Positions 10,617-61,127 of a stretch of DNA of 64,000 nucleotides are shown here, piece after piece (positions within the stretch are counted from its first letter, which is position 1; each line of letters opens with the position of its first letter). The translations under genes and the position numbers were made by a program. The notes below the pieces were generated by a model. It searched no databases and was not told the origin of the DNA. It was given only the letters and a program-made list of their open reading frames with translations. Source of the stretch: an uncultured Cytophagia bacterium (GTDB lineage Bacteria > Zhuqueibacterota > Zhuqueibacteria > Oceanimicrobiales > Oceanimicrobiaceae); assembly GCA_964539665.1 (NCBI GenBank), contig CAZIKB010000003.1, forward strand, positions 60,062 through 124,061, written 5' to 3'.

Positions 10617-10637
10617 AAAATATACATTGGATTTATT

Positions 10638-43767: not shown

Positions 43768-45645
43768 TTGAATTCAAATTATTCCAAACAAAATAGCGTA
43801 ATTCATCAAATTAAGATTAGCTTTTTGGGGGGACTTTTGACCGGTATAATTATCGGTGGCTCTCTGGCAATTTATAACACCTGGTTTTTAAATTACTATA
43901 TTCAGAAAGGGCTAACTCATTTTGTCATTGAAATATTCAGTGAATATATCATTCAAGCCACTTTGGCTGCAACTTTGATCTTTTTATTTTTATTACCTTT
44001 TGTGGCTTTTTTTAGTCAAACCATTTCAGAAATTAGGGCCATTCGTCTGGCAAGATTCACATTAATGCTGGTCGGAATAATCTGGGTAATTGGCGGCTAT
44101 CAAATAAACAAATCTATCTGGTTCCCACCGATAGCTTCTGCGAAAGGCATTTTAGGAAACATGTTTTACAGTTTCATCTGTCTGGGATTGGCTTTTCTTT
44201 TATACAAAATAATGATGGCATTTCGTTTAAAACTGCCTTTGCCATTTGCTGGATTATTGCATAAATTATACAATGGCAAATTATTGAGTGCAATTGCGTC
44301 AATTTTTATTGTTGCGAATGGATGTACCATTTATCATCTCGCAAACCATAAACCTAATAGTCCCAATGTTGTAATTCTTTCGATTGATACGTTACGTGCT
44401 GATCATCTTGGTTGTTATGGTTATGAAAGGAATACGAGCCCAACTATTGATAAATTAGCCAGCGAGGGCGTTCAATTCTCTAATTGTTATGCTCAACGTG
44501 GTCTAACCTGGCCGTCACTAACATCAATAATGACTGCCATGTATCCGAAAACTCATGGAGTCAGACGCAATCAGGTTCCGCTTGACGGCAAAAATATTAC
44601 CATCGCCGAAATTCTTAAAAATGAAGGGTACAAGACCGGTGCATTTCTTGCAAATTATTATTTTTCACCAAATCGTGGTTTCGACACCAAAATGGGTGGT
44701 GAAATTGGCGATCTGGATTATGCCATCACGGGGCAAGCTTTAGGTTGGCTGAATGGGATTAATCCTCAGGAAGACAATTTTTTCTTGTGGATTCACTATA
44801 AAAATCCTCATTTACCTTATGAACCGCCTGAACCGTTTACAAATATGTTTGACTCAACTTATACCGGCCAGTACGATGGTTCAAGGAAGTCAGTCAATTC
44901 GATTTATGTGAATAAAACAGAACTCGAAGAAAGAGATCTTGACCACATTGTTGCACTTTATGATGCTGAGATAAGATCTACAGACAGCTATATTGAACTT
45001 ATCCTGCAAAAGCTCAAAGCCATGAATGTGTATGATAATACAATTATTGTCTTCATCTCTGACCATGGTGAAGAGCTTTATGAGCGTAATTATTATTTTG
45101 ATCATGCTTGCTCAATCTACGATGGTGTTTTGCGAATTCCTTTGGTCATAAAATATTCGGATGTTATTCCGGCTGGGAAAATAATGGAAAATCAGATTGA
45201 AAGTATTGATATCACCCCAACCATCCTCAATATTTTAAAAGTTCCTTTACGTGATGAATTTGAAGGTCGCAGTATATTTGGAATGATATTAGATGATTCT
45301 TCTGATGTATGGTTTCCTTCTTTTGCTGACCGCTCAATTGTCATAAATTCCATTCGAACACCGCAGTGGAAATATATTTATAATCCGGAAGATTACCATG
45401 CAGTGTGTGTAACTGGCGCCGTAGAGGATGATGGAGAAGGTTATGATGTTGAAATTGAAGAACTTTATAATATACAAACCGATCCGTCTGAGCAAGTAAA
45501 TCTGGCTGAGCAATTTCCGAATATTGCTAAAGAATTACGCGCAGAGATCATAAACTGGCTCAATACCAACAAGAAAGTACATAAAGAATATACACTGTCC
45601 AAAGAAGCAGAAAAAAGACTGCGTGCCCTGGGATACGTCAAATGA
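43768..45645 (+). CDS. sulfatase-fold (PF00884-type) protein with 5-TM N-terminal domain (LtaS/EptA-like architecture), Thr nucleophile; LGY tail
   Basis: TTG start after AAAAGGAGA. Five hydrophobic helices in aa 17-189. VVILSIDTLRADHLG, ISDHGEELYE, ELYNIQTDPSEQVNL. The FGly site reads T-W-P-S-L-TSIMTA. Ends ...AEKRLRALGYVK. Confidence 0.8.
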   Translation: MNSNYSKQNSVIHQIKISFLGGLLTGIIIGGSLAIYNTWFLNYYIQKGLTHFVIEIFSEYIIQATLAATLIFLFLLPFVAFFSQTISEIRAIRLARFTLMLVGIIWVIGGYQINKSIWFPPIASAKGILGNMFYSFICLGLAFLLYKIMMAFRLKLPLPFAGLLHKLYNGKLLSAIASIFIVANGCTIYHLANHKPNSPNVVILSIDTLRADHLGCYGYERNTSPTIDKLASEGVQFSNCYAQRGLTWPSLTSIMTAMYPKTHGVRRNQVPLDGKNITIAEILKNEGYKTGAFLANYYFSPNRGFDTKMGGEIGDLDYAITGQALGWLNGINPQEDNFFLWIHYKNPHLPYEPPEPFTNMFDSTYTGQYDGSRKSVNSIYVNKTELEERDLDHIVALYDAEIRSTDSYIELILQKLKAMNVYDNTIIVFISDHGEELYERNYYFDHACSIYDGVLRIPLVIKYSDVIPAGKIMENQIESIDITPTILNILKVPLRDEFEGRSIFGMILDDSSDVWFPSFADRSIVINSIRTPQWKYIYNPEDYHAVCVTGAVEDDGEGYDVEIEELYNIQTDPSEQVNLAEQFPNIAKELRAEIINWLNTNKKVHKEYTLSKEAEKRLRALGYVK

Positions 45646-45854: not shown

Positions 45855-47513
45855 ATGAACAAAACAAATCATAGAGGAATTTTATTCTTTTTGAAGATAG
45901 GTATAATATCCGGTTTAATGTATGGCTTAATTTTAGGCTTGGTGAGATTATTAAGTCATGACGCTGTAAGAGCCTACTATTCAGCAAATTTTACAGATGT
46001 CCTGTTTTCATATACACAGGATTTTCTTAATCAAACCGTCATAATAACTTTGCTCGTATTTATTGTAATTGAAATGACTTTCTATTTTTTAAACAAATTA
46101 TTTGCAACCGCAGATAATAAGATAGTAAAATATTCAAGAATGATCGCGATTAATGGATTTTTCTTTTTATTAATTTTCTATTATTTAAATATTCAACACT
46201 GGTTTCCATCGATGTTGTCTAATAGCGCTTTATTGTACTACATAATTATTCTCGCGGGCAATGCTTTATTACTGTTATTATTCAATCGAATCAGAAACAA
46301 AATAGTTGTTCATGATTCTTTTAAATCCATTAAATTGCCAGTAATTACTGTTATCGTTTTATTATTGTTTAGCAATGTATTTAGTTATTTTCAAAAGAGT
46401 AAATTAAAAGCTGAAACACCGATAAATGTCATAATGATTGTGATTGATGCCCTGCGCGCCGGGCAGTTAGGTTGTTACGGATATGATCTGCCTACAACTC
46501 CGAACATCGATGCATTTGCTCAAGAAAGCCTTAGATTCACGAGCAGCTTTTCACCGAGCAACCATACTAAACCTTCCACAGCATCGCTTTTTACTTCGCT
46601 CTATCCTTCGCAACATAACGTTATTCTAGGAAATAGGTCAAATAATTCCGGGGAGTATTTCTCAGATGTTTTAGATGAATCATTCAAAACGATTGCAGAA
46701 TATTTGTATGAAGCAGATTATAACACGGCCGGGTTTCTAAACCAGGGTCAATTGCGTAAATATTTGGGATTTGCACAGGGATTTATCTATTATAATTCCC
46801 GGTTAGGAAGGGCGCCGCAAATTAATCGTGAATTTTTGCGTTGGCTGCCCATGAATAAACATAGAAAATTTTTTGCATACATACATTATTTGGATGTACA
46901 CGGCCCTTATGATCCGCCTGAGAAATATCGAAAAATATTTAATGTGAATGAGCTGACCAGCGAAATTCCGGAGCGTGCTAAAAATTGGCGAAAATTTAAA
47001 AAAGACTTTGAGAGCGGTGCTTTAGAATTTACGCCTGAGGACCTGGAAAATTTGAAAGCGCTTTACAATGCTGAACTTAAATCCGTTGATGATCAGCTTG
47101 GAATACTTTTTCAGGAATTGAAAAGGCAAGGAGTATATGAAAACAGTCTAATCATAATCACGGCTGACCACGGTGAGTCGTTTGTTGAACATGGCGAAAT
47201 AGATCATGGCTCCACTTTGTTCGATGAAGTTTTACGCGTACCTTTAATAATCCATTATCCTAACCAGGAAAAAACCGGCGTAGTAGATGCAAATGTGCAA
47301 ACTCTTGATTTACTGCCGACCATTTTAGATTATTTAAATATTACGCCTTCAAAAGACTTGATGGGACAAAGTATTTTAAAGTATTCAAATGGCAGCATTG
47401 AGCACGATGAATATCCTATTTTCTGTGAAAGAAATAATCTGGTCTCATTGATCTTTGGTAAAGATAAATATATTTTTGATAAAATAGCCAGACGGGGGAA
47501 CTCTATAACTTAG
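45855..47513 (+). CDS. sulfatase-fold paralog with multi-TM N-terminus, Thr nucleophile; reading frame broken near 47481 (see next feature)
   Basis: VIMIVIDALRAGQLG, TADHGESFVEHG, FGly site T-K-P-S-T-ASLFTS. The ORF ends ...KYIFDKIARRGNSIT*, while the homologous C-terminus continues in another frame. Confidence 0.75.
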   Translation: MNKTNHRGILFFLKIGIISGLMYGLILGLVRLLSHDAVRAYYSANFTDVLFSYTQDFLNQTVIITLLVFIVIEMTFYFLNKLFATADNKIVKYSRMIAINGFFFLLIFYYLNIQHWFPSMLSNSALLYYIIILAGNALLLLLFNRIRNKIVVHDSFKSIKLPVITVIVLLLFSNVFSYFQKSKLKAETPINVIMIVIDALRAGQLGCYGYDLPTTPNIDAFAQESLRFTSSFSPSNHTKPSTASLFTSLYPSQHNVILGNRSNNSGEYFSDVLDESFKTIAEYLYEADYNTAGFLNQGQLRKYLGFAQGFIYYNSRLGRAPQINREFLRWLPMNKHRKFFAYIHYLDVHGPYDPPEKYRKIFNVNELTSEIPERAKNWRKFKKDFESGALEFTPEDLENLKALYNAELKSVDDQLGILFQELKRQGVYENSLIIITADHGESFVEHGEIDHGSTLFDEVLRVPLIIHYPNQEKTGVVDANVQTLDLLPTILDYLNITPSKDLMGQSILKYSNGSIEHDEYPIFCERNNLVSLIFGKDKYIFDKIARRGNSIT

Positions 47514-47692
47514 AAATAGATCCGGGAGAGCGGAATAAAATTAATTCCCGGAATAGTGAATTAGAGCAGAAAATGAAAGCTATGGTTTTAGAATGGAGTG
47601 AGGCCATGAAACTCGTTAGTAAAAAGTCAGAAGGTACTAAATTAGATAAAGAAACCATCGAAAAACTTAAAAGTCTGGGATATATCAAATAA
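47483..47692 (+). other. displaced 3' segment of the 45855 sulfatase-fold gene (frame -1 relative to the upstream part)
   Basis: Translates NSQTGELYNLEIDPGERNKI...KETIEKLKSLGYIK*, matching the ELY(N/D)LxxDPxE box and LGY tail of the two paralogs. Junction is GATAAAATAGCC, an A4 run where A5 would restore the frame. Confidence 0.75.
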
Positions 47693-47833
47693 GACTGTTG
47701 AATTAAGGTCAAGTGCCATCTAATATTCTCAGTCGGGCGAATTCCATGGTTGGAAAAACGCATTCACTTCATTATTAGCCACGTGGCAGAGTGATTCCAA
47801 ATCAACGTACACTTCAGAATAAACCTAAATGAA

Positions 47834-47961
47834 TTGTCAAATTATGATTATAAGCTGTCATTTGGTTGTCATTAAGTCATCTGTTGTCATTGATTTAATG
47901 ACCTAATGACCATGAATGACATTGTGACTGAAACAGTAGTTCAGGTATACTGTTTGTCATT
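47834..47961. repeat. array of (T)TGTCA(T/A)T direct repeats and AATGAC inverted copies (putative regulator binding sites)
   Basis: TTGTCAA 47834; TGTCATT 47856, 47867, 47885, 47955; AGTCATC 47875; AATGAC 47897, 47905, 47915. Central palindrome GTCATT-gattt-AATGAC at 47886-47902. Spacings mostly 8-11 bp. Confidence 0.55.
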
Positions 47962-48211
47962 GAATATTGCAATGATAATCAGTAATCATTCCACTATAAT
48001 TGTTGCTCCCTTAATATTTTCCTCAGAAGTTAATATATCAGGCATTAAGCAAAAAATTATGAGAAGCTTTTGTTATACATTGTTTCATACTGTAACACAA
48101 AAAAATGTTGATCCGTTTTAAGACAATTATTTTTATGCCGATATTAATTTTGTAGTCGGTCTTTTTAAGTAAGTTCGTATTAATAAAGCACTAAATGTTT
48201 ATAATTTACAT

Positions 48212-48227
48212 TGGTATAAATTTTGCT
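48212..48227 (+). promoter_or_regulatory. candidate sigma-54 (-24/-12) promoter of the sulfation operon
   Basis: TGGTAT-aaatt-TTGCT with correct GG/GC spacing, ~64 nt upstream of ATG 48291. Confidence 0.4.
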
Positions 48228-48290
48228 AAAGTATTGCGACTGACTTCAAAAATGTTCATTATACGTGATATTAAGACGTGAGGAAAATAT

Positions 48291-48590
48291 ATGTCGGAAC
48301 AGAACCGAAAAAGAGTAATTGGTAAGGCAATTACTTATAGAGGACTTGGCACATTAGTTACTATATCAGTAATATATATTTTCACTGGAAAATTGGCGCT
48401 TTCATTTGGTGTCGGACTTGTTGAGGTCGTTGCTAAAATGCTTTTTTATTACCTGCATGAACGACTTTGGGAGAAAATATCATGGGGTAAAGATAAACAT
48501 CCTCTTGCTGGAATCCCTGTTAAAAAGGAGCTTGAACCTGAAGACAAAGTATTGCTTGAAGAGAGATTAAAAGAGCTTGGATATTTATAA
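48291..48590 (+). CDS. DUF2061-family small membrane protein with C-terminal LGY tail
   Basis: KAITYRGLGTLVTISVIYIFTG...KMLFYYLHERLWEKISWG is the DUF2061 pattern, a family I recall as linked or fused to APS kinases. Ends ...LEERLKELGYL. RBS GAGGAAA. Confidence 0.7.
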   Translation: MSEQNRKRVIGKAITYRGLGTLVTISVIYIFTGKLALSFGVGLVEVVAKMLFYYLHERLWEKISWGKDKHPLAGIPVKKELEPEDKVLLEERLKELGYL

Positions 48591-48611
48591 AAATCGAATT
48601 ATTGGGAGCAA

Positions 48612-50795
48612 ATGATGAATCGAAAATACTCGTTAATTACTTTACTCATTTTATTGGTATTCTTAATTATCGATGCACAGCCTGCTTTTGCATATATCGG
48701 CCCCGGCGCCGGTTTTGCATTTTTAACTTCATTTGCAATGCTATTTGCCAGTTTCTTTATGGCTTTTTTTACATTGCTAACCTGGCCTTTCCGGGTTTTT
48801 TTACGGTTTTTCAAAAGAAGAAAAGCTTTAGCCAGAGCTAAAACAGATCGGGTTGTGATTCTGGGCCTTGACGGTCTTGACCCAACTATCACAGAACGCA
48901 TGCTACAGGAAGGTAAATTACCAAATTTGAAAAAACTTAAAGAGCAAGGTTCTTACAAACATTTACAGACCACTTATCCAGCTCTCTCGCCAGTTGCCTG
49001 GTCAGCCTTTGCAACTGGAGTTAATCCTGGTCGACATAACATTTTTGATTTTCTTTCACGCAATCGATTCAACTATTTACCCGAATTATCCTCTTCAAAA
49101 GTTGGGTCTCCAAATCGAAAAATATCCCTGGGAAAATTCGAAATCCCGCTTGGCAAACCGATTGTTCGATTATTACGTCGCAGCAAAAGCTTCTGGACAA
49201 TATTGGGAGAGAACGGTATTTTCAGTCATGTACTTCGTGTACCAATCACTTTCCCACCTGAAAAATTTAACGGAGCGTTACTTTCAGCGATGTGTACTCC
49301 GGACCTCTGGGGAACGCAAGGCACTTTTTCCTACTTCACGACTGATACAACTAATAAAAAATTTAAAGAGGGAGGAGAGACTGCAGTTGTGAAATGGGTA
49401 GGCGATAGAATTGAGGGATTTATTAAAGGCCCTGAGAACTCCATTACTAAAAAGCATGAGTCGATGAAGCTCCCTTTTGAAGTAAAGATTTTGAGTGATG
49501 ACGAAATAGAACTGATAATAGAAAAAAAGAAATACAACCTAAAAAAGAAAAAATACACCGATTGGATTGAATTGAAATTTAAAGCCGGAATGGGGATCAA
49601 AGTACATGGTATTGCACGATTTTACCTGCTTGAAACCAATCCAGTTTTTAGATTGTATATGACGCCCATCAATATCGATCCGGAAAAGCCAGCGCTGCCA
49701 ATTTCTTACCCTTATTTCTATTCCGTTTATCTTTCTAAGTTATTCGGGAAATTCGCGACATTGGGTTTAGCGGAAGATACCTGGGCTTTGAACGAGGGCG
49801 TTCTTGATGAGGAAGCTTTTTTAGAGCAGGCATATCTAATTCATGAAGAACGTGAAAAACAATTTTTTCATACTTTAAGCAAAACCAGAAAAGGTTTGTG
49901 TTCAGTGGTATTTGATGCCAGTGATCGAATTCAGCACATGTTTTTCCGAACGCTTGAAGATGACCATCCTGCCAACCGAGGCAAAGAAACTGAAAAATAT
50001 AAAAATGTTATTGCCGATATGTATGAGCAAATGGATGACCTCGTTGGTAGAACCATGGCTAAAATAAATAAAGATGAGGTTTTTATTGTGCTCTCTGATC
50101 ATGGTTTTAAATCATTCAGACGCGGTATAAACCTGAATTCCTGGTTAAAAGCTAATGGTTATCTAAAGCTGAAAGACGGTAGGGAAGAGAGTGGGGAATT
50201 TTTTCAGGGTGTTGATTGGGAAAATACAAAAGCCTATGCATTCGGACTGACGGGTATTTACATCAATGTTAAAGGCCGGGAAAAGAACGGCATTGTCGCA
50301 CCAGGTGAAGAATTAAAAACACTCAAAGATGAGTTGATTGCTAAACTTTCCGGGATGTTAGATCCTGAAACCGGGGAAGTTGCCATTATCGAGATGTTTG
50401 ATAATAGTGAAATTTACAAGGGACCTTATACTAACAATGGACCCGACTTGATTAGTGGCTACAATAGCGGCTATCGAATTTCATGGAATGGCGCAACCGG
50501 GAATGTCAATGAGCAAATTTTTGAAGACAACGTTAAAGCCTGGAGCGGCGATCATTGTGTTGACCCGAGGCTTGTCCCCGGGGTGATTTTTAGCAACCAA
50601 AAAATTATGGCCGCTAAACCAGGTTTGATGGATATAGCGCCAACAGTTCTTGAATTATTTGGAATAACTAAACCAGGCTATATGGAAGGCCAGGATATCT
50701 TAAGTAGTGAACCAGAAGAGACAGCAAAAGATGAAGATATTCCCACCATAGTGCCAACAGTAAAAAAAACGGAGGTGGCTTCGGTCAATGAATAA
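48612..50795 (+). CDS. alkaline-phosphatase-superfamily protein (type I phosphodiesterase/NPP-like, COG3379-like), long form with N-terminal membrane hairpin
   Basis: VVILGLDGLDP, SPVAWSAFATG (Ser at the nucleophile position), LSDHGF, WSGDHC. N-terminus has two hydrophobic segments followed by RFFKRRKALARAK. Confidence 0.75.
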   Translation: MMNRKYSLITLLILLVFLIIDAQPAFAYIGPGAGFAFLTSFAMLFASFFMAFFTLLTWPFRVFLRFFKRRKALARAKTDRVVILGLDGLDPTITERMLQEGKLPNLKKLKEQGSYKHLQTTYPALSPVAWSAFATGVNPGRHNIFDFLSRNRFNYLPELSSSKVGSPNRKISLGKFEIPLGKPIVRLLRRSKSFWTILGENGIFSHVLRVPITFPPEKFNGALLSAMCTPDLWGTQGTFSYFTTDTTNKKFKEGGETAVVKWVGDRIEGFIKGPENSITKKHESMKLPFEVKILSDDEIELIIEKKKYNLKKKKYTDWIELKFKAGMGIKVHGIARFYLLETNPVFRLYMTPINIDPEKPALPISYPYFYSVYLSKLFGKFATLGLAEDTWALNEGVLDEEAFLEQAYLIHEEREKQFFHTLSKTRKGLCSVVFDASDRIQHMFFRTLEDDHPANRGKETEKYKNVIADMYEQMDDLVGRTMAKINKDEVFIVLSDHGFKSFRRGINLNSWLKANGYLKLKDGREESGEFFQGVDWENTKAYAFGLTGIYINVKGREKNGIVAPGEELKTLKDELIAKLSGMLDPETGEVAIIEMFDNSEIYKGPYTNNGPDLISGYNSGYRISWNGATGNVNEQIFEDNVKAWSGDHCVDPRLVPGVIFSNQKIMAAKPGLMDIAPTVLELFGITKPGYMEGQDILSSEPEETAKDEDIPTIVPTVKKTEVASVNE

Positions 50796-52782
50796 GATTA
50801 AAGTTGTATTTGGTATAATAGCTATCCTATTTTTAGTGTCATTGATTAGCTTATCTGTTTTCTGGGGATGCAAAAAAAGCAATGCAAGCGCAATTGAAAA
50901 AAAAGTGATTGTTATTGGCTTTGATGGTATGGATCCAAGACTTTTGTCAAAATATATGAGTGAGGATCGACTTCCAAATTTTACTAAATTAGCTGAAACG
51001 GGCGATTATAAACCGCTTGGTACAAGTATTCCTCCACAGAGTCCGGTTGCCTGGTCAAATTTCATAACAGGTATGAATCCTGGCGGACATGGCATATTTG
51101 ATTTCCTTCATCGTGATCCAAATACAATGCTGCCACTCTCATCTACATCAAAAACGGAAGAGTCTGGCAAATCAATAAAGATCGGCAAATGGGTAATTCC
51201 ATTATCGGGAGGGAAAGTAGTGAATCTACGTAAAGGGCAGGCCTTCTGGGAGAAACTTGAAGATTCAGGCGTCCCAACGACAATTTTCAAAATACCATCA
51301 AATTTTCCACCGGTAAAAACAGACGGCAAAGCTTTGAGTGGTATGGGTACTCCTGATTTACAGGGTACATTTGGTACGTTTTCTTATTATACGGACGACC
51401 CTCCGCCAAATCGCGACGATATTTCCGGCGGTGTGGTTTATCCCGTCAAAATACTAAACAATGAAGTAGAAGCTCAATTAACAGGTCCAGCAAATACATT
51501 TTTAGAAGATGCCCCGAATGCTACTATTCCGTTTAAAGTGTGGAGTGATCCCGAAAATCCTGTAGTAAAAATATCAGTGCAGGATCACCAGATTTTGTTG
51601 AAAGAGAAAGAGTGGAGTGACTGGATTCAGGTGAAATTTGATATTATTCCTGTTCTGGAATCTGTAACTGGCATCTGTAGATTCTATCTGAAAGAAGTAC
51701 GACCGCATTTCAAATTATATGTTACTCCGATAAACATTGATCCTTCAAATCCAGCATTACCCATTTCAACACCTGATGATTATGCAAAAGAACTGTACGA
51801 CCACTGCGGATACTTTTATACGCAAGGCATGCCTGAGGATACAAAAGCGTTGTCCTGGAATGTATTTGATCATGATGATTTCCTGAAACAAGGCTTGAAT
51901 GTACTTGATGAACGATTACGTCTTTTCAATTATGTGTTTGACACGTTTGAGCAAGGTCTGCTGTTTTTTTATTTTTCAACTACCGATTTAAATGGACACA
52001 TGTATTATAATATGATTGATCCTGAACATCCGGGGTATGATGCAAAACAAGCGCAAAAATATGGTGACGTTATGAGTAAGTTATACGAAAGCGCTGATAA
52101 AGCAGTTGGCCACGTACTCGAGCGAATAGATGAAAACACTACACTTATAGTCATGTCAGATCATGGATTTGCACCGTTCAGACGCGCTGTGCATTTAAAT
52201 ACCTGGCTAAAAAATGAAGGATACATTACTTTAATTGATGAATCAAAGCAAGCCGAAAATGAATACTTTCAGAATGTCAATTGGAGCCGAACGCAAGCTT
52301 ATGGATTAGGTTTCAATGGGCTTTATGTAAATTTAAGAGGTCGGGAATCTTATGGTTTTGTTGCTCGACGGGAAAAGAAAGCCCTTTTGAATGAAATTTC
52401 CGAGAAGCTTTTAGCTCTACGCGATCCCAAAGATAATACAAGAATTATCGAACGGGTTTATCTGGCTGAAGAAATTTATTCTGAGCAATATTTAGAAAAT
52501 GCACCTGATCTCATTGTCGGTTACAACCGTGGATACAGAGCTTCATGGGAAACGACAATTGGTAACTTTCCACTGGAATGGATTTCGGACAATATGGATC
52601 CCTGGAGCGGTGATCATTGTATGGCAGCAGAGCTTGTACCTGGTGTAATTTTATCAAATAAAAAAATAGACGCTCAAAATCCTAAACTTTATGATATGGC
52701 CCCTACAATTCTTAACGAATTTAACGTTGAAAAGAGTGACGACATGGTGGGGCAAGTGATATTCAACAACATAGTAAATTAA
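50788..52782 (+). CDS. alkaline-phosphatase-superfamily protein (COG3379-like), long form with single N-terminal TM or lipoprotein-like signal
   Basis: VIVIGFDGMDP, SPVAWSNFITG, MSDHGF, WSGDHC. N-terminus ILFLVSLISLSVFWGC. 8-nt overlap with the upstream paralog. Confidence 0.75.
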   Translation: MNKIKVVFGIIAILFLVSLISLSVFWGCKKSNASAIEKKVIVIGFDGMDPRLLSKYMSEDRLPNFTKLAETGDYKPLGTSIPPQSPVAWSNFITGMNPGGHGIFDFLHRDPNTMLPLSSTSKTEESGKSIKIGKWVIPLSGGKVVNLRKGQAFWEKLEDSGVPTTIFKIPSNFPPVKTDGKALSGMGTPDLQGTFGTFSYYTDDPPPNRDDISGGVVYPVKILNNEVEAQLTGPANTFLEDAPNATIPFKVWSDPENPVVKISVQDHQILLKEKEWSDWIQVKFDIIPVLESVTGICRFYLKEVRPHFKLYVTPINIDPSNPALPISTPDDYAKELYDHCGYFYTQGMPEDTKALSWNVFDHDDFLKQGLNVLDERLRLFNYVFDTFEQGLLFFYFSTTDLNGHMYYNMIDPEHPGYDAKQAQKYGDVMSKLYESADKAVGHVLERIDENTTLIVMSDHGFAPFRRAVHLNTWLKNEGYITLIDESKQAENEYFQNVNWSRTQAYGLGFNGLYVNLRGRESYGFVARREKKALLNEISEKLLALRDPKDNTRIIERVYLAEEIYSEQYLENAPDLIVGYNRGYRASWETTIGNFPLEWISDNMDPWSGDHCMAAELVPGVILSNKKIDAQNPKLYDMAPTILNEFNVEKSDDMVGQVIFNNIVN

Positions 52783-52795
52783 AAAGGAGTTTTAT

Positions 52796-52987
52796 ATGTT
52801 AGGTCCCAAAATTAAATTAGAAAAAGAATTATATGATCGAATTAAAAAATTTTCTGAAATCGCTGGTTATTCTTCTGTTGAAGAATTTGTAACTCATGTG
52901 CTGGAAAAAGAACTGTCGACAATAGATGACTCTGAATCAGAAGAAGAAGTGAAAAAACGATTACAGGGATTGGGATATTTGTCTTAA
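52796..52987 (+). CDS. 63-aa ribbon-helix-helix-like protein with acidic linker and LGY tail
   Basis: KIKLEKELYDRIKKFSEIAGYSSVEEFVTHVLEKEL has the strand-helix-helix pattern of CopG/NikR-type RHH domains. It is followed by DDSESEEEVKKRLQGLGYLS. Confidence 0.5.
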   Translation: MLGPKIKLEKELYDRIKKFSEIAGYSSVEEFVTHVLEKELSTIDDSESEEEVKKRLQGLGYLS

Positions 52988-53038
52988 AATATTTCATAAT
53001 TCCAATAATACCATAAATCCACGGAGTTAGTATAAAAT

Positions 53039-53869
53039 ATGTTGAATATATTGAACTATTTTTTTAATATAATTTTTAATGTTATATTTTTTCCATTTAA
53101 AAATATGGATCCGATCTGGGGCATGTTAGTGGTTTCGTTTGTTACAGGGATTGTGATGTTATTTGTTTTTAAGGCAACTTCCGATCAGATTGGTATTAAA
53201 AAAGCAAAAAATTTGGTAAAGGGCCATTTCCTGGCCATTCGACTCTATCGGGACGATATCACACTTATGTTTGTTACCATGAAAAATATTATCATGAGTA
53301 ACCTGCTTTACATGAAAAAATCTTTTCGCCCCATGCTTTTTCTAATAATTCCTGTGGGTGTCATTTTAATTCACCTTGGCACCAGGTATGAATTCCGGCC
53401 ATTCAAAGTTGGGGAGACAATTATTGTTTCCATACGTCTGGATGACAAAATTCAGGATCTGAATCTCAACAATGTTGTTTTTGAACTTCCAGATGGTTTA
53501 ACCTCCGACATGCCGCCCGTTCGAATTCAGCAATTACGGGAAATTAACTGGCGTATCAAAGCTGAAAAGCCAGGCATCTATGATCTGATTTTTAAATACA
53601 ACAACAGTAATGTAACAAAGCGACTTGAAGTCAGAGATTCATTGATACCGCTTTCGAAAGAAATTGCCCAGAACAGTTTATCTGTGACTCTAATGAATCC
53701 CGGGGAATCGAGTTTGCCCGGATCTTCATTCGCTTCTCACATTGCAATCGGTTACCCCAAAAGAGATTTCAAATTCTTAGGATTCAGTTTCCATTGGTTA
53801 ATTGCTTTCTTTGTTTTTAGTCTAATTGCGGCATTTTCATTTAAAGGCGTGCTTGGCGTTGAAGTTTAG
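53039..53869 (+). CDS. hypothetical membrane protein (3-4 TM helices + central soluble beta-rich region), family not recognised
   Basis: Long ORF with coding-like composition. TM segments at WGMLVVSFVTGIVMLFVF, MLFLIIPVGVILI and HWLIAFFVFSLIAAFSF. Confidence 0.5.
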   Translation: MLNILNYFFNIIFNVIFFPFKNMDPIWGMLVVSFVTGIVMLFVFKATSDQIGIKKAKNLVKGHFLAIRLYRDDITLMFVTMKNIIMSNLLYMKKSFRPMLFLIIPVGVILIHLGTRYEFRPFKVGETIIVSIRLDDKIQDLNLNNVVFELPDGLTSDMPPVRIQQLREINWRIKAEKPGIYDLIFKYNNSNVTKRLEVRDSLIPLSKEIAQNSLSVTLMNPGESSLPGSSFASHIAIGYPKRDFKFLGFSFHWLIAFFVFSLIAAFSFKGVLGVEV

Positions 53870-53938
53870 GAGATAATTATTTTAAAAAAACAATTTGCAT
53901 GTGATAGAAATCTTTTTTAATATGCCGGTTAAAAAGCG

Positions 53939-54775
53939 ATGAGTTATAAATTTTTATCTACTAAAACAAGTCAGGAACATGATTTAGACCAGTGGCAAAA
54001 TCGTAGCCTCGAAGGTGAAATAAAAAGTTTTGAAGGCCGTACATTAGTTCGTATTTTTAATAAATATTTAAACGGAAAAGAAGCGAAAATCCTTGAAGGA
54101 GGTTGCGGATTTGGTGCTTGGTGTGAGTGGTTCCAAAAACAGGGTTATCAAATATTAGGTATTGAATACGATAATAATATAGTAAAAAGAGCCAAAAAAT
54201 ATAAGCCAGATGTAGCCGTTGAATTAGGCGATATCACCGAAATAAAGTACCCGTCCGATAGCTTTGACGCTTATGTATCATTGGGAGTGATTGAACATTT
54301 TGAACATGGTCCAGAGTCTGCCCTGAGAGAAGCCCATCGAATTCTTAAACCAGATGGCATAGCCTTTGTAACTACGCCTTATTTAACAGTAATCCGAAGG
54401 TTTGTTGCTCATCCGGTTCGCAGCTTGTATTTTTTAATTCGAGAGTTTCGTGGAAAATCAAATTATTTTTGGGAATATCGGTTTACAAAAAATGAATTAC
54501 GTTCTTTTCTTGAGAATACTGGCTTTGAAATTATACATGCGGATATCGACGATTATGAGCATAGGATTAAGAATCGCCACATAGGTCTGTGGGCGGATTG
54601 GTTTTTTTTAAGAAGAAAAAATGGTGCAATCTGGGAGTTAAATGGTTTAGGAAAATTTGTGCTCAGAGTTGTCAATCTTTTTCCTGATTCCTGGTACTGC
54701 TCGGGTTTGCATCTGGTTGCAAGGGCAAAAAAGAACGATATCACTGAAAATAGTGAAATTACTAAATCCAAATAA
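53939..54775 (+). CDS. class I SAM-dependent methyltransferase
   Basis: [15 protein letters not shown] (motif I), [22 protein letters not shown]. Confidence 0.8.
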
Positions 54776-54798: not shown

Positions 54799-57435
54799 AT
54801 GGAATTAATCGCACCTCACGGTGGCAAACTTGTTGATCAGGTTTTACGTGGCGAAGAACGTGAAGCAGCTTTGAACAAAGCTAAGCATCTAAAAAAAATT
54901 GCAATCAACGCAACAGCAATTTCTGATGTAGAACTCATTGCAGTTGGTGCATTCAGCCCATTAACGGGATTTATGAAACAGGCTGATTATGAAAATGTAG
55001 TTACGAATATACGTTTAGCAAATGGCGTGGTCTGGTCGATACCAATAACTTTGTCAGTTACCAGTGAAATTGCTGATGAAGTTAAAATTGACGAAGAAAT
55101 TGTATTAACCAATGATGCCGGATTGCAATTAGCATTATTAAAAGTTGAGGAAAAGTTTACTTACGATAAAACCCGGGAAGCGGAATTTGTATATAAAACA
55201 ACCGAAGAAGCCCATCCTGGCGTTGCCCGGCTTTACAAGCAGGATGATGTGTTATTAGGTGGTGAGATTAGGCTAATCAATCGGGTGCCGGATCAACCAT
55301 TTCCGGATTTTCGACACGATCCTGTTCAGAGTCGGCGTATGTTTGCCAGTCGCGGTTGGAAAAAAATTGTAGGATTTCAAACTCGCAATCCAATACATCG
55401 TGCGCATGAATACATACAGAAATGTGCATTGGAAATTGTCGATGGTTTATTTTTACATCCATTAGTTGGGGAGACTAAAAAGGATGATATTCCCGCGGAT
55501 ATTCGCATGCAAAGTTATGAGAGCCTGCTGCGAGATTATTATCCGCCAAACCGTACACTTTTAGGGGTATATCCGGCCGCCATGCGCTATGCCGGTCCAA
55601 GAGAGGCTATTTTTCATGCGATTGCGCGAAAGAATTATGGCTGCAGCCATTTTATAGTCGGTCGAGACCATGCCGGGGTTGGTAATTATTATGGAACGTA
55701 TGATGCTCAAAAAATATTCGATGATTTCAAAAAGGAAGAAATAGATATCACACCTTTATTTTTTGATCATACATTTTATTGCAAAAAATGCGGTGCTATT
55801 GTTTCTGACAAAACCTGTCCGCATGATCAATCTGAGCGTTTGATATTAAGTGGCACTCAGGTTCGTGAAATGCTCACTCGCGGGGAAGCGCCACCACCAG
55901 AATTAACCCGCCCGGAAGTGGCGAGTATACTGATCGAAGGTTATCGCAAAGAAGGCAAATCAGTTCAACCAGAAAAAAAACCGGAAGCCAAAAGAGCACC
56001 AGCTAAATCCGAACCAAAGGCAGCGGTTGCAAGGGCGTCTAAAAATGGCAAGCGGAAAGTATTTGTCATCGGCCTTGATTGTGCCACACCCGAATTGATT
56101 TTTGACCAGTACAAATCGGAGCTTCCAAACTTTCGGAAATTAATGGAAAGCGGTCTTTACGGAGAATTAGAAAGCAGCATTCCGCCAATTACCGTTCCAG
56201 CCTGGTCGTCCATGATGAGCAGTAAAGATCCGGGGCAGTTGGGCTTTTACGACTTTCGTAATCGTGCAGATTACTCCTATGAAAGCATGTATATTGCCTC
56301 ATCCAGGTCAGTAAAAACGGATCGGGTCTGGGATATTCTCTCTCGTTCAGGAAAACAGGTATCGGTTGTGGGAGTGCCTCAAACCTATCCTATCCAGCCC
56401 GTTAAAGGAAACATGATTTCTTGCTTTCTGACTCCTTCTACTGAAAGCCAGTACACCTATCCTGAAGAACTTAAATCTGAAATCCAGGAGTTGGTGGGAG
56501 ACTACATGATTGATGTGCCTAATTTTAGAACCGAGAACAAGGATTTGCTTTTGCGGCAAATTTATGAAATGACCGAAAAGCGTTTTCGGCTTGTTCGCTA
56601 TCTAATGCGGAAAAAACCGTGGGACTTTTTTATGTTTGTCGAAATGGGTACAGATCGCATTCATCACGGATTCTGGAAGTATATGGATACCGGCCATAAA
56701 AAATATGAACCCGGTAATCCTTATGAAAACTCAATAAAGGAATATTATAAATATCTGGATCGGGAAATCGGCGAGGTACTTGATAACCTTGACGACGATA
56801 CATCCGTTTTGGTGGTTTCAGACCATGGCGCCAAAAAAATGGATGGCGGTATATGCATTAATGAATGGCTCATTGAAAATGGCTATCTTATTTTAAAAGA
56901 GAAACCGGCTTCACTTATGCCACTGGAGAAAGCAGAAATAGACTGGCCCAAAACGAAAGCATGGGGCGCTGGCGGATATTTTGGCCGAATTTTTCTTAAT
57001 GTCCGCGGCCGCGAACCTGAAGGCGCGGTTGCACCTGAAGAGTATGAAACCATTCGGAATGAATTGATTCATAAGCTGGAAAATATAAAGGACGAAAAAG
57101 GCCAGCCATTAACTACCAGAGTTATAAAGCCAAATGAGGTTTATAAGGAAGTAAACAATATTCCTCCGGATTTAATGGTCTATTTTGGTGATTTGAATTG
57201 GCGGTCGGTTGGCAGTGTCGGATTAAATCGAATACACACTTTTGATAAAGAGCTGGGACCTGATGATGCTAACCATTCTCAGCACGGTATTTTTGTCATG
57301 CATGATCCACAAAATCCTGCAAATGGCAAGAGAATTCACGGCATGCAATTGGTTGATGTTGCGCCAACTATTTTAGATTTATTTGGTGACGAAATTCCAA
57401 ATGATATGATCGGTAAAGTTATCAGGAACAAATAA
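54799..57435 (+). CDS. sat: fusion protein: ATP sulfurylase (Sat) + Lys/Pro/Ala-rich linker + COG3379-like alkaline-phosphatase-superfamily domain
   Basis: aa 1-~385: [15 protein letters not shown] (HxxH), [30 protein letters not shown]. Linker [37 protein letters not shown]. aa ~421-878: [28 protein letters not shown]. Confidence 0.85.
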
Positions 57436-57559: not shown

Positions 57560-58183
57560 ATGAAGACATCTAAAAAAGCATGTACAATTTGGTTCACGGG
57601 TTTACCTTCCTCTGGAAAATCTACTTTGGCGGAGATGCTGGAAAAGGAGTTAAAAAACCGCGGAGAAAGGGTCGAAATTTTAGATGGCGATGTAGTCCGT
57701 ACGAATTTAAGCAAAGGCTTGACCTTTAGTAAGGAAGATCGGGACATCAATATCCGGAGAATAGGATTTGTTTGTCATTTGTTGACAAGAAATGGTGTGT
57801 TCGCAATTTCTGCAGCAATATCTCCTTATAGAAATATACGAGATGAAAACCGTGCACTCATAGGCAACTTTGTCGAGGTTTTTGTTGATTGTCCACTGGA
57901 TGAATGTATTAAAAGAGATGTAAAAGGTCTTTATAAAAAAGCATTGGCCGGCGAAATAAAGGAATTTACCGGCGTTTCTGATCCTTATGAAGAACCTCTC
58001 AAACCTGAAATTGTGATTGACGCCCACGGAGAAGAACCCAAAGATAGCCTTCAAAAAATACTGGCGAGATTAGTAGAATTAGGTTACTTATCCAATAACG
58101 GTCTTGATACATCTGACAAAGCATATTCTGATGAAGAAGAAGAGGTAGTGAGAAAGCGGCTGAGTGATCTGGGCTATATTTAA
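57560..58183 (+). CDS. cysC: adenylyl-sulfate (APS) kinase with a 30-aa C-terminal extension ending in an LGY tail
   Basis: P-loop [42 protein letters not shown]. The core ends ...[12 protein letters not shown], then [37 protein letters not shown]. Confidence 0.9.
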
Positions 58184-59529
58184 TGTTAAATATTTTTAAG
58201 AAAAATAAGGGATCAAAAGTATTTGTTCTGTCTATCGACGGTGTTCCCTTTTCATTTATGCAGGAAAACATAGAAAAGGGTCATTTTCCTAACTTCAAAC
58301 GTTTTTTGAATATGGGTGATTTTAAAAGGATGAATTCAGTGCAACCGGTGATATCATCGGTTGCCTGGTCCTCTTTTATGACAGGCAAGAATCCGGCTAA
58401 GCATAATATTTATGGATTTGTGGATCAAATGCCGGGTTCAAATAATGTATATATTCCTACTTCGCTCAACATGACCAGTAAAACCATTTGGGATATCATG
58501 AGTGAGGCTGGGAAAAAAGTGTTTGTGATGAATGTTCCTGTAACCTATCCACCACGCGCGGTAAATGGAATTATGATTGGCTGTTTCCTTTGCACTCAAA
58601 TTGAGAAAATAGCTTCCCCGCCTGCTATTTCTGCTGAATTAAAAAATATGGGCTATAAGATTGATGCAGACGCCTGGATCGCCCGTGAAAATTTAGACAA
58701 ATTCCTGGAGGAAGTAAATACTACCCTGGAAAAGCGAACCGAGGCTATGTTTCATTTTTTGGCAAAGGAAGATTGGGATTATTTTCACACCCACATCATG
58801 GAAACAGACCGGATAAATCACTTTTTATGGGAGCACATGGAACTCGATGAGCCGAAATATGCTAAAGCTTTTTTCCAATTTTATAAAAGGTTGGATGATA
58901 TTTTAGGTGAAGTTGAACAAAAAATCGGCGAAGACGCGGAATTTATAGTTCTGTCTGATCACGGTTTTTGTACTATTAAGAAAGAAATCTATCTCAATAA
59001 TTATTTGGAAGAAGCCGGTATATTGAAATTTAATAACTCTCAGCCGGAAAGTATCGCGGACATGCATGAAGATTCCACGGCCTACAGCTTGATTCCAGGC
59101 AGGGTATTTGTGAATCTAAATGGGCGCGAGCCGAACGGTTCGATATCGCCGGGGAATTATGAAAAGACCCGGGAAAAACTCACTGAGACGCTTCTTAATT
59201 TAAAGGAAAAAGACACCGGCGAATTTATTATCAAGGAAGTTATCAGGCGCGAAAATATCTACGAAGGTCAAAATATTGGCTCCGCAGCGGACTTAATTGC
59301 TGTTCCACATGATGGTTATGACTTGAAAGGGAACGTGAATAAAGAAGTGTTTGGTGAAAAGGGGGCGCTGGTCGGAATGCATACATTCGAAGATTCACTT
59401 TTATTTGTTCGAAATAAATCTTTGTTAAAACAGAATAATCAATTTTGGATCGGAGATTTGGCTCCAACTATTTTAAATATGATGAATATACCCATCCCAA
59501 ACGATATGGATGGAGTGGCATTAGTTTGA
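58183..59529 (+). CDS. alkaline-phosphatase-superfamily protein (COG3379-like), short cytoplasmic form
   Basis: VFVLSIDGVPF, SSVAWSSFMTG, LSDHGF. TAATG overlap with cysC. No TM segment. Confidence 0.75.
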   Translation: MLNIFKKNKGSKVFVLSIDGVPFSFMQENIEKGHFPNFKRFLNMGDFKRMNSVQPVISSVAWSSFMTGKNPAKHNIYGFVDQMPGSNNVYIPTSLNMTSKTIWDIMSEAGKKVFVMNVPVTYPPRAVNGIMIGCFLCTQIEKIASPPAISAELKNMGYKIDADAWIARENLDKFLEEVNTTLEKRTEAMFHFLAKEDWDYFHTHIMETDRINHFLWEHMELDEPKYAKAFFQFYKRLDDILGEVEQKIGEDAEFIVLSDHGFCTIKKEIYLNNYLEEAGILKFNNSQPESIADMHEDSTAYSLIPGRVFVNLNGREPNGSISPGNYEKTREKLTETLLNLKEKDTGEFIIKEVIRRENIYEGQNIGSAADLIAVPHDGYDLKGNVNKEVFGEKGALVGMHTFEDSLLFVRNKSLLKQNNQFWIGDLAPTILNMMNIPIPNDMDGVALV

Positions 59530-60919: not shown

Positions 60920-61112
60920 AACTAAACACACACAAACCTTTTTCAAGAAGGTCTGCGTTTCCTTATAGTAATATGTTTAACAATGAAACAATTGTACAAA
61001 ATAAATACATGGAAAATCAGAAAAATTAATTCATTTGATAAAATCATATTTTAAAATTTAGATAATACTTTATAAATTAAGGAGTTGAAAATAGCACAAA
61101 ATAATGCCACTC

Positions 61113-61127
61113 TGGCATAAATATTGC
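61113..61127 (+). promoter_or_regulatory. candidate sigma-54 (-24/-12) promoter
   Basis: TGGCAT-aaata-TTGC(C) with correct GG/GC spacing, ~150 nt upstream of ATG 61276. Confidence 0.4.

Follow-up and report, generated by a model that had tools for sequence, protein, structure and literature searches.

What do a soluble protein of 63 residues and a membrane protein of 276 residues do among genes for ATP sulfurylase and APS kinase, and do they belong together? The question is raised by a 64,000-nt stretch of DNA from an uncultured Cytophagia bacterium (hereafter, the window), a polysaccharide locus in which genes of the Wzx, Wzy, and PMT_2 types are found. The answer that we favor, at a probability of roughly 0.4, is that the two proteins, named S63 and MEM276, constitute the noncatalytic half of a four-gene envelope module, in which MEM276 would act as an insertase or platform and S63 would dock by means of its C-terminal tail.

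The operon and the four-gene module

Both ORFs picked out by the sequence-only reading are real, conserved protein-coding genes with many homologues each, one encoding S63 (52796..52987; ATG with an upstream aaaggag) and the other MEM276 (53039..53869). They lie, like the other operon genes listed below, on the forward strand. The operon's first gene in the window (48291..48590) encodes a 99-residue DUF2061 protein (PF09834, E = 1.8e-18) with two transmembrane (TM) helices and a C-terminal LGY tail, EERLKELGYL. It is followed by genes for two COG3379-like paralogues, the 727-residue enzyme PD727 (48612..50795; Pfam PF01663) and the 664-residue PD664 (50788..52782; assigned by Pfam), the latter directly upstream of the S63 gene. 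Downstream of MEM276 come a SAM-dependent methyltransferase (53939..54775; Pfam), placed between the membrane protein gene and that for ATP sulfurylase (Sat); Sat itself, fused to a soluble COG3379-like domain (54799..57435; PF01747, PF14306, and PF01663); the APS kinase CysC (57560..58183; NCBIfam and Pfam), whose C-terminal extension carries two LGY motifs, one of them KRLSDLGYI; and a soluble COG3379-like enzyme of 448 residues (58183..59529; Pfam), the start codon of which abuts the CysC stop codon. No canonical sulfotransferase was present among the Pfam-scanned ORFs from 14684 to 63401, and a tblastn search of the window with a small sulfotransferase from other loci gave no match. Likewise, an Rfam scan of 47000–54500 returned no significant match, and single-sequence PDB searches with the 727- and 448-residue enzymes returned none.

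When 60 non-redundant loci are compared, MEM276 is found in all 60, S63 in 59, a PD664-like protein in 55, and a PD727-like protein in 51. The gene order is fixed, with PD727 always upstream and median gaps of 27–29 nt (27 nt between PD664 and S63), and the identical order was recovered in six of six contexts seeded from S63. The MEM276 family is represented in KSB1, Calditrichota, Aminicenantes, Nitrospirota, Planctomycetota, Deltaproteobacteria, and further groups; judging by a MAG (locus L039), the module is also present in the cultivable Nitrospira japonica. The expectation that the pair would be conserved together with its neighbors holds for the COG3379-like genes. Sat and CysC are not near in about three quarters of the loci; many genomes link the COG3379 system either with the synthesis of PAPS or with a small sulfotransferase of roughly 205 residues. 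The methyltransferase gene, present in 12 of the 60 loci, is specific to the KSB1/Calditrichota-type clade, and the Sat and COG3379-like parts that are fused in the window are separate adjacent genes (386 and about 460 residues) in loci L005, L065, and L067–69. Our search of the literature on COG3379, DUF2061, COG1422, KSB1 sulfation, and Sat/CysC/pyrophosphatase clusters found no description of the module.

The two paralogous enzymes differ at their N-termini. According to an alignment across phyla and to hydropathy, PD727 begins with a signal-like segment and the motif A|YIGPGAGFA, which does not vary, followed by a TM helix and a stretch rich in K/R; this layout predicts a catalytic domain in the cytoplasm. 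PD664 carries a lipoprotein-like signal in the window and RREFLK-type twin-arginine (Tat) signals in other phyla, and because of its lipobox or Tat signals is predicted to be periplasmic. The prediction from sequence is thus that the membrane separates the two.

S63 and the search for its operator

S63 comprises a ribbon-helix-helix (RHH) core (residues 1–40; 52796–52915), an acidic linker (residues 41–48; 52916–52939), and a tail helix with GLGYLS (residues 49–63; 52940–52984). The strand-helix-helix core proposed earlier is borne out, in that the strand at the N-terminus and the two helices after it (about 45 residues in all) match the fold of solved RHH proteins. A G-x-S/T turn and a strand of alternating hydrophobic and polar residues are the signature of RHH domains. 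Across the S63 family, which counts at least 995 homologues of 61–82 residues, the strand pattern K5-[IV]6-K7-[LIM]8 is kept, and A23-G24-Y25-S26-S27 at the start of helix B is invariant or nearly invariant. Among the curated Pfam and NCBIfam models, the window protein has no RHH_1 (PF01402) match, its only hits being DUF7557 (E = 0.0042; 16.9 bits, cut-off 25) and NikR (E = 0.062); one S63 homologue has a faint precomputed PF01402 match. A PDB profile search with the 63-residue family yielded only chance-level matches, such as the C-terminus of yeast uL13, QLAALGYMS (E = 0.004).

S63 has the beta-alpha-alpha core and G-x-S/T turn in common with RHH regulators and antitoxins (NikR, CopG, Arc, ParD, TacA, and MazE) and, like the antitoxins, places a flexible, partner-binding type of C-terminal helix after the RHH domain. 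It departs from them in having no toxin gene, no operator that could be found, and a tail common to metabolic enzymes, as well as in its unusually high conservation across phyla: none of the other three module proteins is conserved as well, the median identity between the window and distant loci being 57% for S63 versus 52%, 48%, and 33% for the others. A role as an RHH antitoxin of a type II toxin-antitoxin system was rejected, given that the neighbors are always a COG3379 enzyme and a DUF106-like protein; no toxin families were seen in the S63/MEM276 locus tables. Rejected as well was a role as a Tat proofreading chaperone for the 664-residue enzyme, because KSB1-type homologues without the twin-arginine motif keep the S63 gene and because the possession of the same tail by CysC would go unexplained.

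Nearly all characterized RHH proteins bind DNA, which counts against an S63 that does nothing but dock. S63 could instead be a repressor or autoregulator whose tail tethers it to the enzymes, such that occupancy of the machinery sets the amount of free repressor. Such a device would resemble an antitoxin or the DNA/membrane switch of PutA, although PutA joins RHH domain and enzyme in one polypeptide with a documented redox switch, whereas here the proteins are separate and the link between them is putative. Besides the fold, what speaks for this possible, if doubtful, explanation is the retention of features of the DNA-binding face, namely K5 and K7 on the strand and the invariant G24-Y-S-S that opens and N-caps helix B. 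Furthermore, the gene for the paralogue RHH-LGY-2 opens Sat–CysC operons, and its promoter (TTGACG-N17-TACACT) is overlapped in five of five loci by a conserved, operator-like palindrome that the −10 element helps to form (ACACTC-N4-6-GAGTGT). DNA binding by RHH-LGY proteins is accordingly plausible, and S63 may bind DNA in addition to docking. It should be noted that the helix-B surface residues E30, H34, and E37 are invariant in S63 and absent from RHH-LGY-2, that the net charge of the S63 core is about −1, and that the S63 gene lies mid-operon behind a gap of the short kind typical of the module; the latter two do not favor a repressor, and the first is in keeping with the docking model.

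Nor did the DNA upstream of the module supply a partner. The TGTCATT array at 47856–47961, put forward earlier as the operator, is clustered locally, but its count over the window equals chance (14 vs. 14.2 expected), and it is unique to the window, being absent from 61 of 61 related loci, including close relatives whose S63 is 80–92% identical. A k-mer and palindrome search of 35 regions upstream of the four-gene module (module A) brought out clade-specific signals only, with no k-mer, palindrome, or conserved operator common across phyla, although operon starts in many loci were set by a crude rule, so that an operator may have been missed; the RHH-LGY-2 palindrome, which came to light on comparable inspection, provides a positive control. 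What is conserved in KSB1/Calditrichota-type relatives is a probable operon control region (48081..48226, forward strand) consisting of a palindrome, TGTTTCATACTGTAACA (48081–48097), an element, CGTTTTAAGACA (48114–48125), and a sigma-54-type −24/−12 element, TGGTATAAATTTTGC (48212–48226), and a second pair of palindrome and sigma-54-type promoter lies at 60974–61127. These elements resemble a sigma-54 promoter with an activator site, which counts against the repressor model. Eight of the 35 upstream regions contain the sigma-54 pattern, whose chance expectation is 0.006 per region. The TGTTTCA-type palindromes were also considered as an S63 operator and rejected, since they stand 125–130 nt upstream of the sigma-54-type promoters at both places in the window, a spacing that fits the site of an enhancer-binding activator. 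Similar palindromes of 33 nt in the L005-type genome are dispersed, REP-like repeats.

MEM276 as a bacterial relative of DUF106 proteins

The earlier description of MEM276 as a membrane protein with an amphipathic segment and a beta-rich middle domain proved sound. It has an N-terminal helix (residues 1–22), TM1 (25–47; 53111–53179), a cytosolic hairpin that includes KKAKNLVKGHFLAIRLYRDD (48–95; 53180–53323), TM2 (96–118; 53324–53392), an Ig-like beta domain (119–250; 53393–53788), and TM3 (251–276; 53789–53866). In an AlphaFold2 model (pLDDT 89.7), the TM helices span residues 25–47, about 96–117, and 253–268, in agreement with hydropathy, the hairpin consists of helices 50–69 and 74–95, the latter running on into TM2, and the beta domain covers residues ~120–250. 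An N-out/C-in topology is suggested by the K/R-rich hairpin, which would then fit the positive-inside rule. The hairpin superposes on TMCO1.

The verdict that the protein matches no known family did not survive, and its fold is not novel. Judged from sequence profiles, MEM276 is a previously undescribed bacterial member of the DUF106 branch of the Oxa1/YidC superfamily. The archaeal DUF106 protein MJ0480 (Ylp1; PDB 5c8j; PF01956, EMC3_TMCO1) is matched with E = 9.9e-9 by a close alignment and with 6.1e-10 by a broad one, and for the broad profile it is the sole PDB sequence with E ≤ 10, YidC structures being unmatched even at that threshold. The alignment spans the N-terminal helix, TM1, the hairpin, and TM2, whereas the match over TM3 is weak, the invariant W253 lying opposite the interface Trp of MJ0480. 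PF01956 was matched by 11 of 37 MEM276 relatives (best E = 5.7e-6), with the window protein alone falling below detection, and an hhalign comparison with human TMCO1 gave no match, a result of little weight, as the TMCO1 sequence used was unverified. The family comprises 74 word-indexed homologues and 3,135 cluster representatives at E ≤ 1e-3, 1,051 of them at E ≤ 1e-30.

MEM276 and MJ0480 have a three-TM core and a positive TM1–TM2 hairpin in common, but MEM276 is bacterial, bears a domain of roughly 130 residues between TM2 and TM3, and is encoded inside a specialized enzyme operon rather than being housekeeping. Bacterial YidC belongs to the same superfamily by transitivity. In Gram-negative bacteria, YidC also has a periplasmic beta-sandwich domain. 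That protein, however, has five or six TM helices with its P1 domain between TM1 and TM2, whereas the domain of MEM276 lies between TM2 and TM3. The module further differs from Get1/WRB–Get3 and TMCO1 in having no Get3/ArsA-type ATPase. Because bacteria already have YidC, a dedicated insertase is not obviously needed, which weighs against this part of the favored model.

MEM276 might instead be a scramblase or flippase, passing a sulfated or otherwise modified lipid-linked intermediate through an Oxa1-type hydrophilic groove; the cytoplasmic enzyme would produce this intermediate and its periplasmic paralogue would use it up. The superfamily fold is in keeping with this, as insertases of the Oxa1 superfamily scramble lipids in vitro (PMC11047089). 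The predicted placement of the paralogues and the Wzx-, Wzy-, and PMT_2-type genes of the window point the same way. We know of no lipid substrate, however, and the module is also present without glycan genes nearby (L005 and L064), dedicated flippases are already encoded in the window, and conserved polar TM positions are few (S33, S48, and Q50, S33 in TM1 being nearly invariant). We therefore consider this unlikely.

The LGY tail and a model of the module

An LGY followed by zero to two residues closes 5 of the 46 window proteins, against 0.045 expected from shuffles, and a sixth such tail lies inside a frameshifted sulfatase gene. Besides S63, its carriers in the window are CysC, three PF00884 sulfatase-family proteins, and the 99-residue DUF2061 protein. 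The shared tail reported earlier is thus nonrandom and common to several proteins, but the COG3379-like enzymes and Sat do not bear it. In S63, an acidic run precedes the helix, hydrophobic residues follow at i, i+4, and i+7 (I/V52, L56, and L59) and then at Y61 and I/L62, and K/R residues form the flanks; neither G60 nor Y61 varies. Some sulfatase-like domains for which a periplasmic location is predicted bear tails too, so that both sides of the membrane have tailed proteins by prediction, and tails are found in module B as well as in module A (module B being RHH-LGY-2, Sat, PD, CysC, PD, and DUF2061; in L065 and L069, the DUF2061 protein is the last gene of this Sat–CysC module). Given that module B has no MEM276, the proposal that MEM276 is a general receptor for the tails fails, as it does for those on predicted periplasmic domains. 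COG3379 domains, the sole family common to the two modules, are candidates for the tail's receptor, as judged from this co-occurrence.

The model that we favor can now be set out. The module would combine a membrane-anchored, cytoplasm-facing COG3379 enzyme of the alkaline phosphatase type and its periplasmic paralogue with S63 and MEM276. With its three-TM core, cytosolic hairpin, and Ig-like domain inserted on the periplasmic side, MEM276 would be a dedicated insertase and assembly platform that inserts the 727-residue enzyme's procoat-like anchor at the N-terminus or keeps it in place, and its periplasmic domain would position the 664-residue enzyme, such that the paralogues face each other across the membrane. 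S63 would be a cytoplasmic RHH dimer, with its C-terminal LGY helix as a docking peptide for COG3379 domains, the same peptide being used by CysC, the DUF2061 protein, and the sulfatase-like transferases. The two tails of a dimer would tie the cytoplasmic enzyme or enzymes to the platform, and competing tails would tie in the supply of PAPS. The data show the folds and homology, the order of the genes, the topology as predicted, and where tails occur; all physical contacts in this scheme, the insertase activity of MEM276, and the chemistry of the enzymes are what we infer.

Alternatively, the tail could be a plain amphipathic helix that targets membranes, as in MinD or FtsA, with S63 and MEM276 making no specific contact with each other. 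The spacing of its hydrophobic residues, the K/R flanks, and its occurrence on proteins of both membrane sides would suit such a function, but generic targeting helices do not require an invariant G60 and Y61, an acidic run stands ahead of the helix, and integral proteins in no need of targeting, such as the DUF2061 and five-TM sulfatase-like proteins, carry the tail too. This makes it improbable.

Slimmer still is the chance that Y61 is a covalent carrier, sulfated or otherwise esterified at the cytoplasmic face from the APS or PAPS of neighboring Sat and CysC and presented via the hydrophilic groove of MEM276, with the periplasmic COG3379 paralogue, as an enzyme of the alkaline phosphatase type that handles aryl esters, passing the group to an envelope polymer. 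The comparison is with DltX/PatA, which, like S63, is a microprotein-sized component of envelope modification with an invariant Tyr near the C-terminus (PMC12148441); DltX, however, is a membrane-spanning microprotein whose motif is FxYxxF and which works as an acyl carrier through its MBOAT partner, whereas S63 is soluble with the motif LGY[ILV]. If true, the system would do for sulfuryl groups what the tyrosine shuttle of DltX/PatA does for acyl groups, and polymers would be modified outside the cytoplasm without export of PAPS. Least credible is the earlier suggestion that MEM276 is part of a sulfate or PAPS transporter, for which only the operon position with Sat and CysC speaks, while there is no similarity to transporter families (SulP, CysZ, CysTWA, and the like) in Pfam, NCBIfam, or the PDB, the modeled three TM helices leave an open groove rather than a closed channel, and Sat and CysC are missing from most neighborhoods of the module.

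The docking and platform model aside, DUF106 has been treated as archaeal and eukaryotic (PMC5868721 and PMC8675477), and the branch that includes Ylp1, EMC3, TMCO1, and Get1, presented in this way in the searchable literature, extends into bacteria as a large family (about 3,100 clusters at 50% identity) with an added periplasmic domain and fixed neighbors. The module offers a defined set of possible clients for an Oxa1-type protein and an entry point to a widespread, wholly uncharacterized COG3379 enzyme system, with paralogues predicted on both sides of the membrane. In addition, how the parts of the module connect can be approached by experiment through the LGY tail, which is short and comes down to one peptide and a single tyrosine.

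Conserved four-gene core

The 63-aa ribbon-helix-helix (RHH)-like protein is encoded at 52796..52987 (+), its ATG lying 8 nt past aaaggag, and the 276-aa membrane protein at 53039..53869 (+), both where the sequence-only reading had placed them. They belong to one co-directional gene run, which opens with a 99-aa DUF2061 two-TM protein carrying an LGY tail (48291-48590; below the size limit of the 120-aa ORF list), followed by PF01663/COG3379-like proteins of 727 and then 664 aa, the two genes in question, a SAM methyltransferase, an ATP-sulfurylase::COG3379 fusion (878 aa), the APS kinase CysC (207 aa), a soluble COG3379-like protein (448 aa) and finally a GT4 glycosyltransferase. Elsewhere the window encodes the flippases, Wzy, PMT_2, carbamoyltransferases and glycosyltransferases of a polysaccharide locus. 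Candidate division KSB1 and Calditrichota supply the MAGs that are its best named relatives.

Conservation was assessed in 60 non-redundant loci, comprising 54 species-level genome loci retrieved with the membrane-protein profile and six contexts of 63-aa homologues. The 276-aa homologue is present in all 60, the 63-aa homologue in 59, the 664-aa-like gene in 55 and the 727-aa-like gene in 51, most absences of the two enzyme genes apparently falling at contig ends. The recurrence in related loci on which the sequence-only reading had staked both small genes is thus borne out. Their order is invariably 727-like, 664-like, 63 aa, 276 aa, with median gaps of 27 and 29 nt around the 63-aa gene, in phyla including KSB1, Calditrichota, Aminicenantes/Acidobacteriota, Nitrospirota, Planctomycetota, Deltaproteobacteria, Schekmanbacteria and Lernaella. 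Accompanying genes are less constant: sulfatase-like (23/60), soluble COG3379-like (17), the ATP sulfurylase Sat (14), methyltransferase (12), CysC (11) and a conserved sulfotransferase of ~205 aa (10). The conserved unit is therefore the four-gene core, and adjacency to Sat/CysC is the minority case. Compared with the window proteins, those of distant loci have median identities of 57% (63-aa), 52% (727-aa), 48% (664-aa) and 33% (276-aa). Only one locus departs from the pattern: in a Phycisphaerae MAG (L060), the membrane-protein homologue (10001-10810, 25% identity) has no 63-aa or COG3379 gene detectable within 10 kb upstream. No Pfam or NCBIfam model scores above threshold for either the 63-aa or the 276-aa family, which source annotations call "hypothetical protein", "CopG/Arc/MetJ regulator" or "DUF106 family", and no description of the four-gene module was found in the literature searched.

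Two further neighbors are candidate PAP (3'-phosphoadenosine 5'-phosphate) phosphatases: a PHP-family phosphoesterase directly 3' of the membrane gene in Lernaella-type loci (L003 11133-11993, L063 11132-11986), and a His_Phos_1 protein of 154-156 aa adjoining the Sat-CysC unit (L005 17714-18184; L067-L069, about 5375-5885 (-), where it is divergent from that unit).

Enzyme topology and the membrane protein

Both paralogous enzymes keep the motifs G[LF]DG.D, [ST]P.AW[ST] and SDHG, as read from translations, which we take to be the metal-ligand and nucleophile motifs of the alkaline-phosphatase superfamily. N-terminally, the 727-aa family has a classical signal-like segment that ends in AxA; after it come Y[IV]GPGAG[FI]A, a single TM helix and a stretch rich in K/R. 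This anchor resembles a procoat-type hairpin, and the catalytic domain should accordingly be cytoplasmic. The 664-aa family carries twin-arginine signals (RREFLK-type) in Aminicenantes, Planctomycetota, Lernaella and others, and lipobox-like signals in the KSB1 group, and should be periplasmic; the paralogues are thus predicted to lie on opposite membrane faces. The segment A|Y[IV]GPGAG[FI]A (window 48612-48790) is invariant at the TM-helix start in all loci with the 727-aa family, and the mature protein would begin with Tyr if the signal is cleaved.

The 276-aa family is large: a word-indexed search returned 74 homologues, some labeled "DUF106 family" by JGI, and an exhaustive profile search returned 3,135 cluster representatives at E<=1e-3, of which 1,051 reach E<=1e-30, nearly all of 270-285 aa. 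The AF2 model (pLDDT 89.7, pTM 0.78) consists of a helix (2-20), TM1 (25-47), a helical hairpin (50-69 and 74-95) continuous with TM2, which ends at residue 117, a beta domain (~120-250) and TM3 (253-268). Against the PDB, the family profile matched one sequence significantly, MJ0480 (5c8j), with E 9.9e-9 from the close alignment and 6.1e-10 from a 37-sequence multi-phylum alignment. This match spans the N-helix, TM1, hairpin and TM2, and a weak second stretch pairs the invariant W253 with a tryptophan of MJ0480. The Oxa1/YidC superfamily includes MJ0480/Ylp1 as its archaeal DUF106 member (PMC5868721). PF01956 (EMC3_TMCO1) gave sub-threshold matches in 4/31 close and 11/37 diverse relatives (best E 5.7e-6); no bacterial YidC structure in the PDB was matched by sequence. 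The inserted domain retrieved generic Ig-like/E-set sandwiches in Foldseek, and the positive-inside rule together with homology suggests a cytoplasmic hairpin and a periplasmic Ig-like domain. We class the protein as a novel bacterial form within the DUF106/Oxa1 kind, DUF106 being described as archaeal and eukaryotic in the literature searched.

LGY tails, the 63-aa protein and a second unit

LGY followed by 0-2 residues ends 5 of the 46 window proteins (shuffles expect 0.045, maximum 2), namely two PF00884 sulfatase-family proteins (37249-38628 and 43768-45645), the DUF2061 protein, the 63-aa protein and CysC, which holds two copies of the motif; the core is E-x-[IVL]-x-[KE]-[KR]-L-x-x-L-G-Y-[ILV]. 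The motif was not found in the window's COG3379-like proteins or Sat, and the proposal that the small protein bears the same tail as the enzymes holds for CysC and the sulfatase-family proteins, not for those two. The 459-aa 'sulfatase' at 37249-38628 has no signal peptide, and where the C/S-x-P-x-R formylglycine motif would lie it reads T-L-P-T-H; a Thr-nucleophile transferase or hydrolase is a likelier identity for it than a genuine sulfatase. A sixth tail (LDKETIEKLKSLGYIK) falls within the last ~70 residues of the sulfatase gene 45855-47513, which lie in another frame (47483-47689). Homologues in L017-L022 are in a single frame; sequencing error, pseudogene formation or recoding might each account for the frameshift in 45855-47689.

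Homologues of the 63-aa protein, 61-82 aa long, number at least 995. Invariant across phyla are L12, G24-Y-S-S27, E30, H34 and E37, and in the tail E49, L56 and G58-L-G-Y61; the form [KR]L[QKR]GLGY[ILM]x occurs in 59/60 homologues from other loci, the exception (L020) reading GLDY. No curated Pfam or NCBIfam model exceeded threshold for this protein, and a PDB search with its family profile gave chance-level matches only. A BLAST match in L005 led to a paralogous family of 74-83 aa, RHH-LGY-2 (367 homologues), whose helix-B surface shows E/Y/R in contrast to E30/H34/E37, which points to a partner peculiar to the four-gene unit. We class the 63-aa protein as a novel RHH variant whose tail, a proposed docking element, recurs in other proteins.

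RHH-LGY-2 heads a second conserved unit (L005 15898-16143 (-); L065, Armatimonadota, 9001-9225; L067/L068 6001-6228; L069 6001-6225), followed by Sat, a ~460-aa COG3379 protein, LGY-tailed CysC, a ~436-aa COG3379 protein and LGY-tailed DUF2061. DUF2061 with its tail, last in this Sat-CysC unit of other phyla, is first in the window operon; the window is both units merged, with one RHH-LGY gene. In L005 (10904-11390 (-)), L006 and L007, three independent assemblies, the DUF2061 domain and LGY tail lie in different frames, the DUF2061 frame continuing into the convergent membrane-protein gene; the split perhaps marks a real site of frameshifting or recoding in this lineage. Since the second unit lacks the 276-aa protein and the tails of 5-TM sulfatase-like proteins are predicted to be periplasmic, the 276-aa protein is not the general tail receptor once envisaged for it. 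The COG3379 domain is the one family that accompanies the tails everywhere, on either side of the membrane; this is co-occurrence evidence rather than proof.

Proposed joint mechanism and alternatives

We favor, at a probability of about 0.4, a joint mechanism whose contacts, insertase function and chemistry we infer, while folds, homology, gene order, signal and anchor types and tail distribution are shown by the analysis. The 276-aa protein would be an Oxa1-type insertase-like platform dedicated to the module, installing or holding the N-terminal anchor of the cytoplasm-facing 727-aa enzyme, while its Ig-like domain would position the periplasmic 664-aa paralogue. The 63-aa protein would form a cytoplasmic RHH dimer, its LGY helices docking on COG3379 domains at a site common to CysC, DUF2061 and the sulfatase-like transferases.

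Possible, if less so, is that the 63-aa protein is an RHH repressor sequestered through its own tail. The paralogue lends this some color: TTGACG-N17-TACACT precedes RHH-LGY-2 in 5/5 loci, its -10 box forming the left arm of ACACTC-N4-6-GAGTGT, a plausible candidate autoregulatory operator. With this palindrome as positive control, the k-mer/palindrome search upstream of the four-gene unit found nothing common across phyla, so that DNA binding is likely for RHH-LGY-2 and no more than possible for the 63-aa protein. The TGTCATT/AATGAC cluster at 47856-47961 (5 exact heptamers, 7 GTCATT), ~220 nt upstream of a palindrome at 48081-48097, is absent from 61/61 related loci examined and so specific to the window genome; window-wide, TGTCATT occurs at chance level. 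That 17-bp palindrome, TGTTTCA-N3-TGYAACA (TGTTTCATACTGTAACA), lies about 125-130 nt upstream of a sigma-54-type -24/-12 element (TGGTATAAATTTTGC, 48212-48226); this element and CGTTTTAAGACA (48114-48125) are conserved ahead of the operon in the KSB1/Calditrichota clade, as is the palindrome-promoter pair (48081-48226) in relatives of that type, and the sigma-54-type pattern occurs in 8/35 upstream regions versus 0.006 expected per region. A second pair at 60974-61127, ahead of the next operon, joins the 17-bp palindrome TGTTTAACAATGAAACA to the sigma-54-type element TGGCATAAATATTGC at 61113 over the same ~125-130 nt. The repeated pair fits an enhancer-binding activator rather than an RHH protein, and it looks as if one such activator may govern two polysaccharide-locus operons. 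A dispersed intergenic palindrome of 33-34 nt, TGTTTCA[CT][AG]ACC...TGAAACA (L005 3620, 5135, 16278; L068 119), looks REP-like and is not module-specific, though it has the TGTTTCA half-site in common with the KSB1 palindrome.

The Oxa1-like groove of the 276-aa protein might instead serve as a scramblase or flippase (compare PMC11047089), which we consider unlikely. That the LGY tail is a generic membrane-targeting helix is very unlikely, and a tyrosine-borne sulfuryl shuttle, conceivable by analogy with DltX/PatA (PMC12148441), is more improbable still. A sulfate or PAPS transporter, another early suggestion for the 276-aa protein, is scarcely credible.

The ~205-aa sulfotransferase (motifs GLPRSGTSMAMKML and LYRNR), absent from the window, lies beside the four-gene unit in L001 (7045-7677 (-)), L062 (11229-11843), L064 (4648-5256 (-)) and seven other loci, and links the unit to PAPS chemistry even without adjacent Sat and CysC. 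Under the joint mechanism, shared docking would help to gather the enzymes and their PAPS supply at the membrane.
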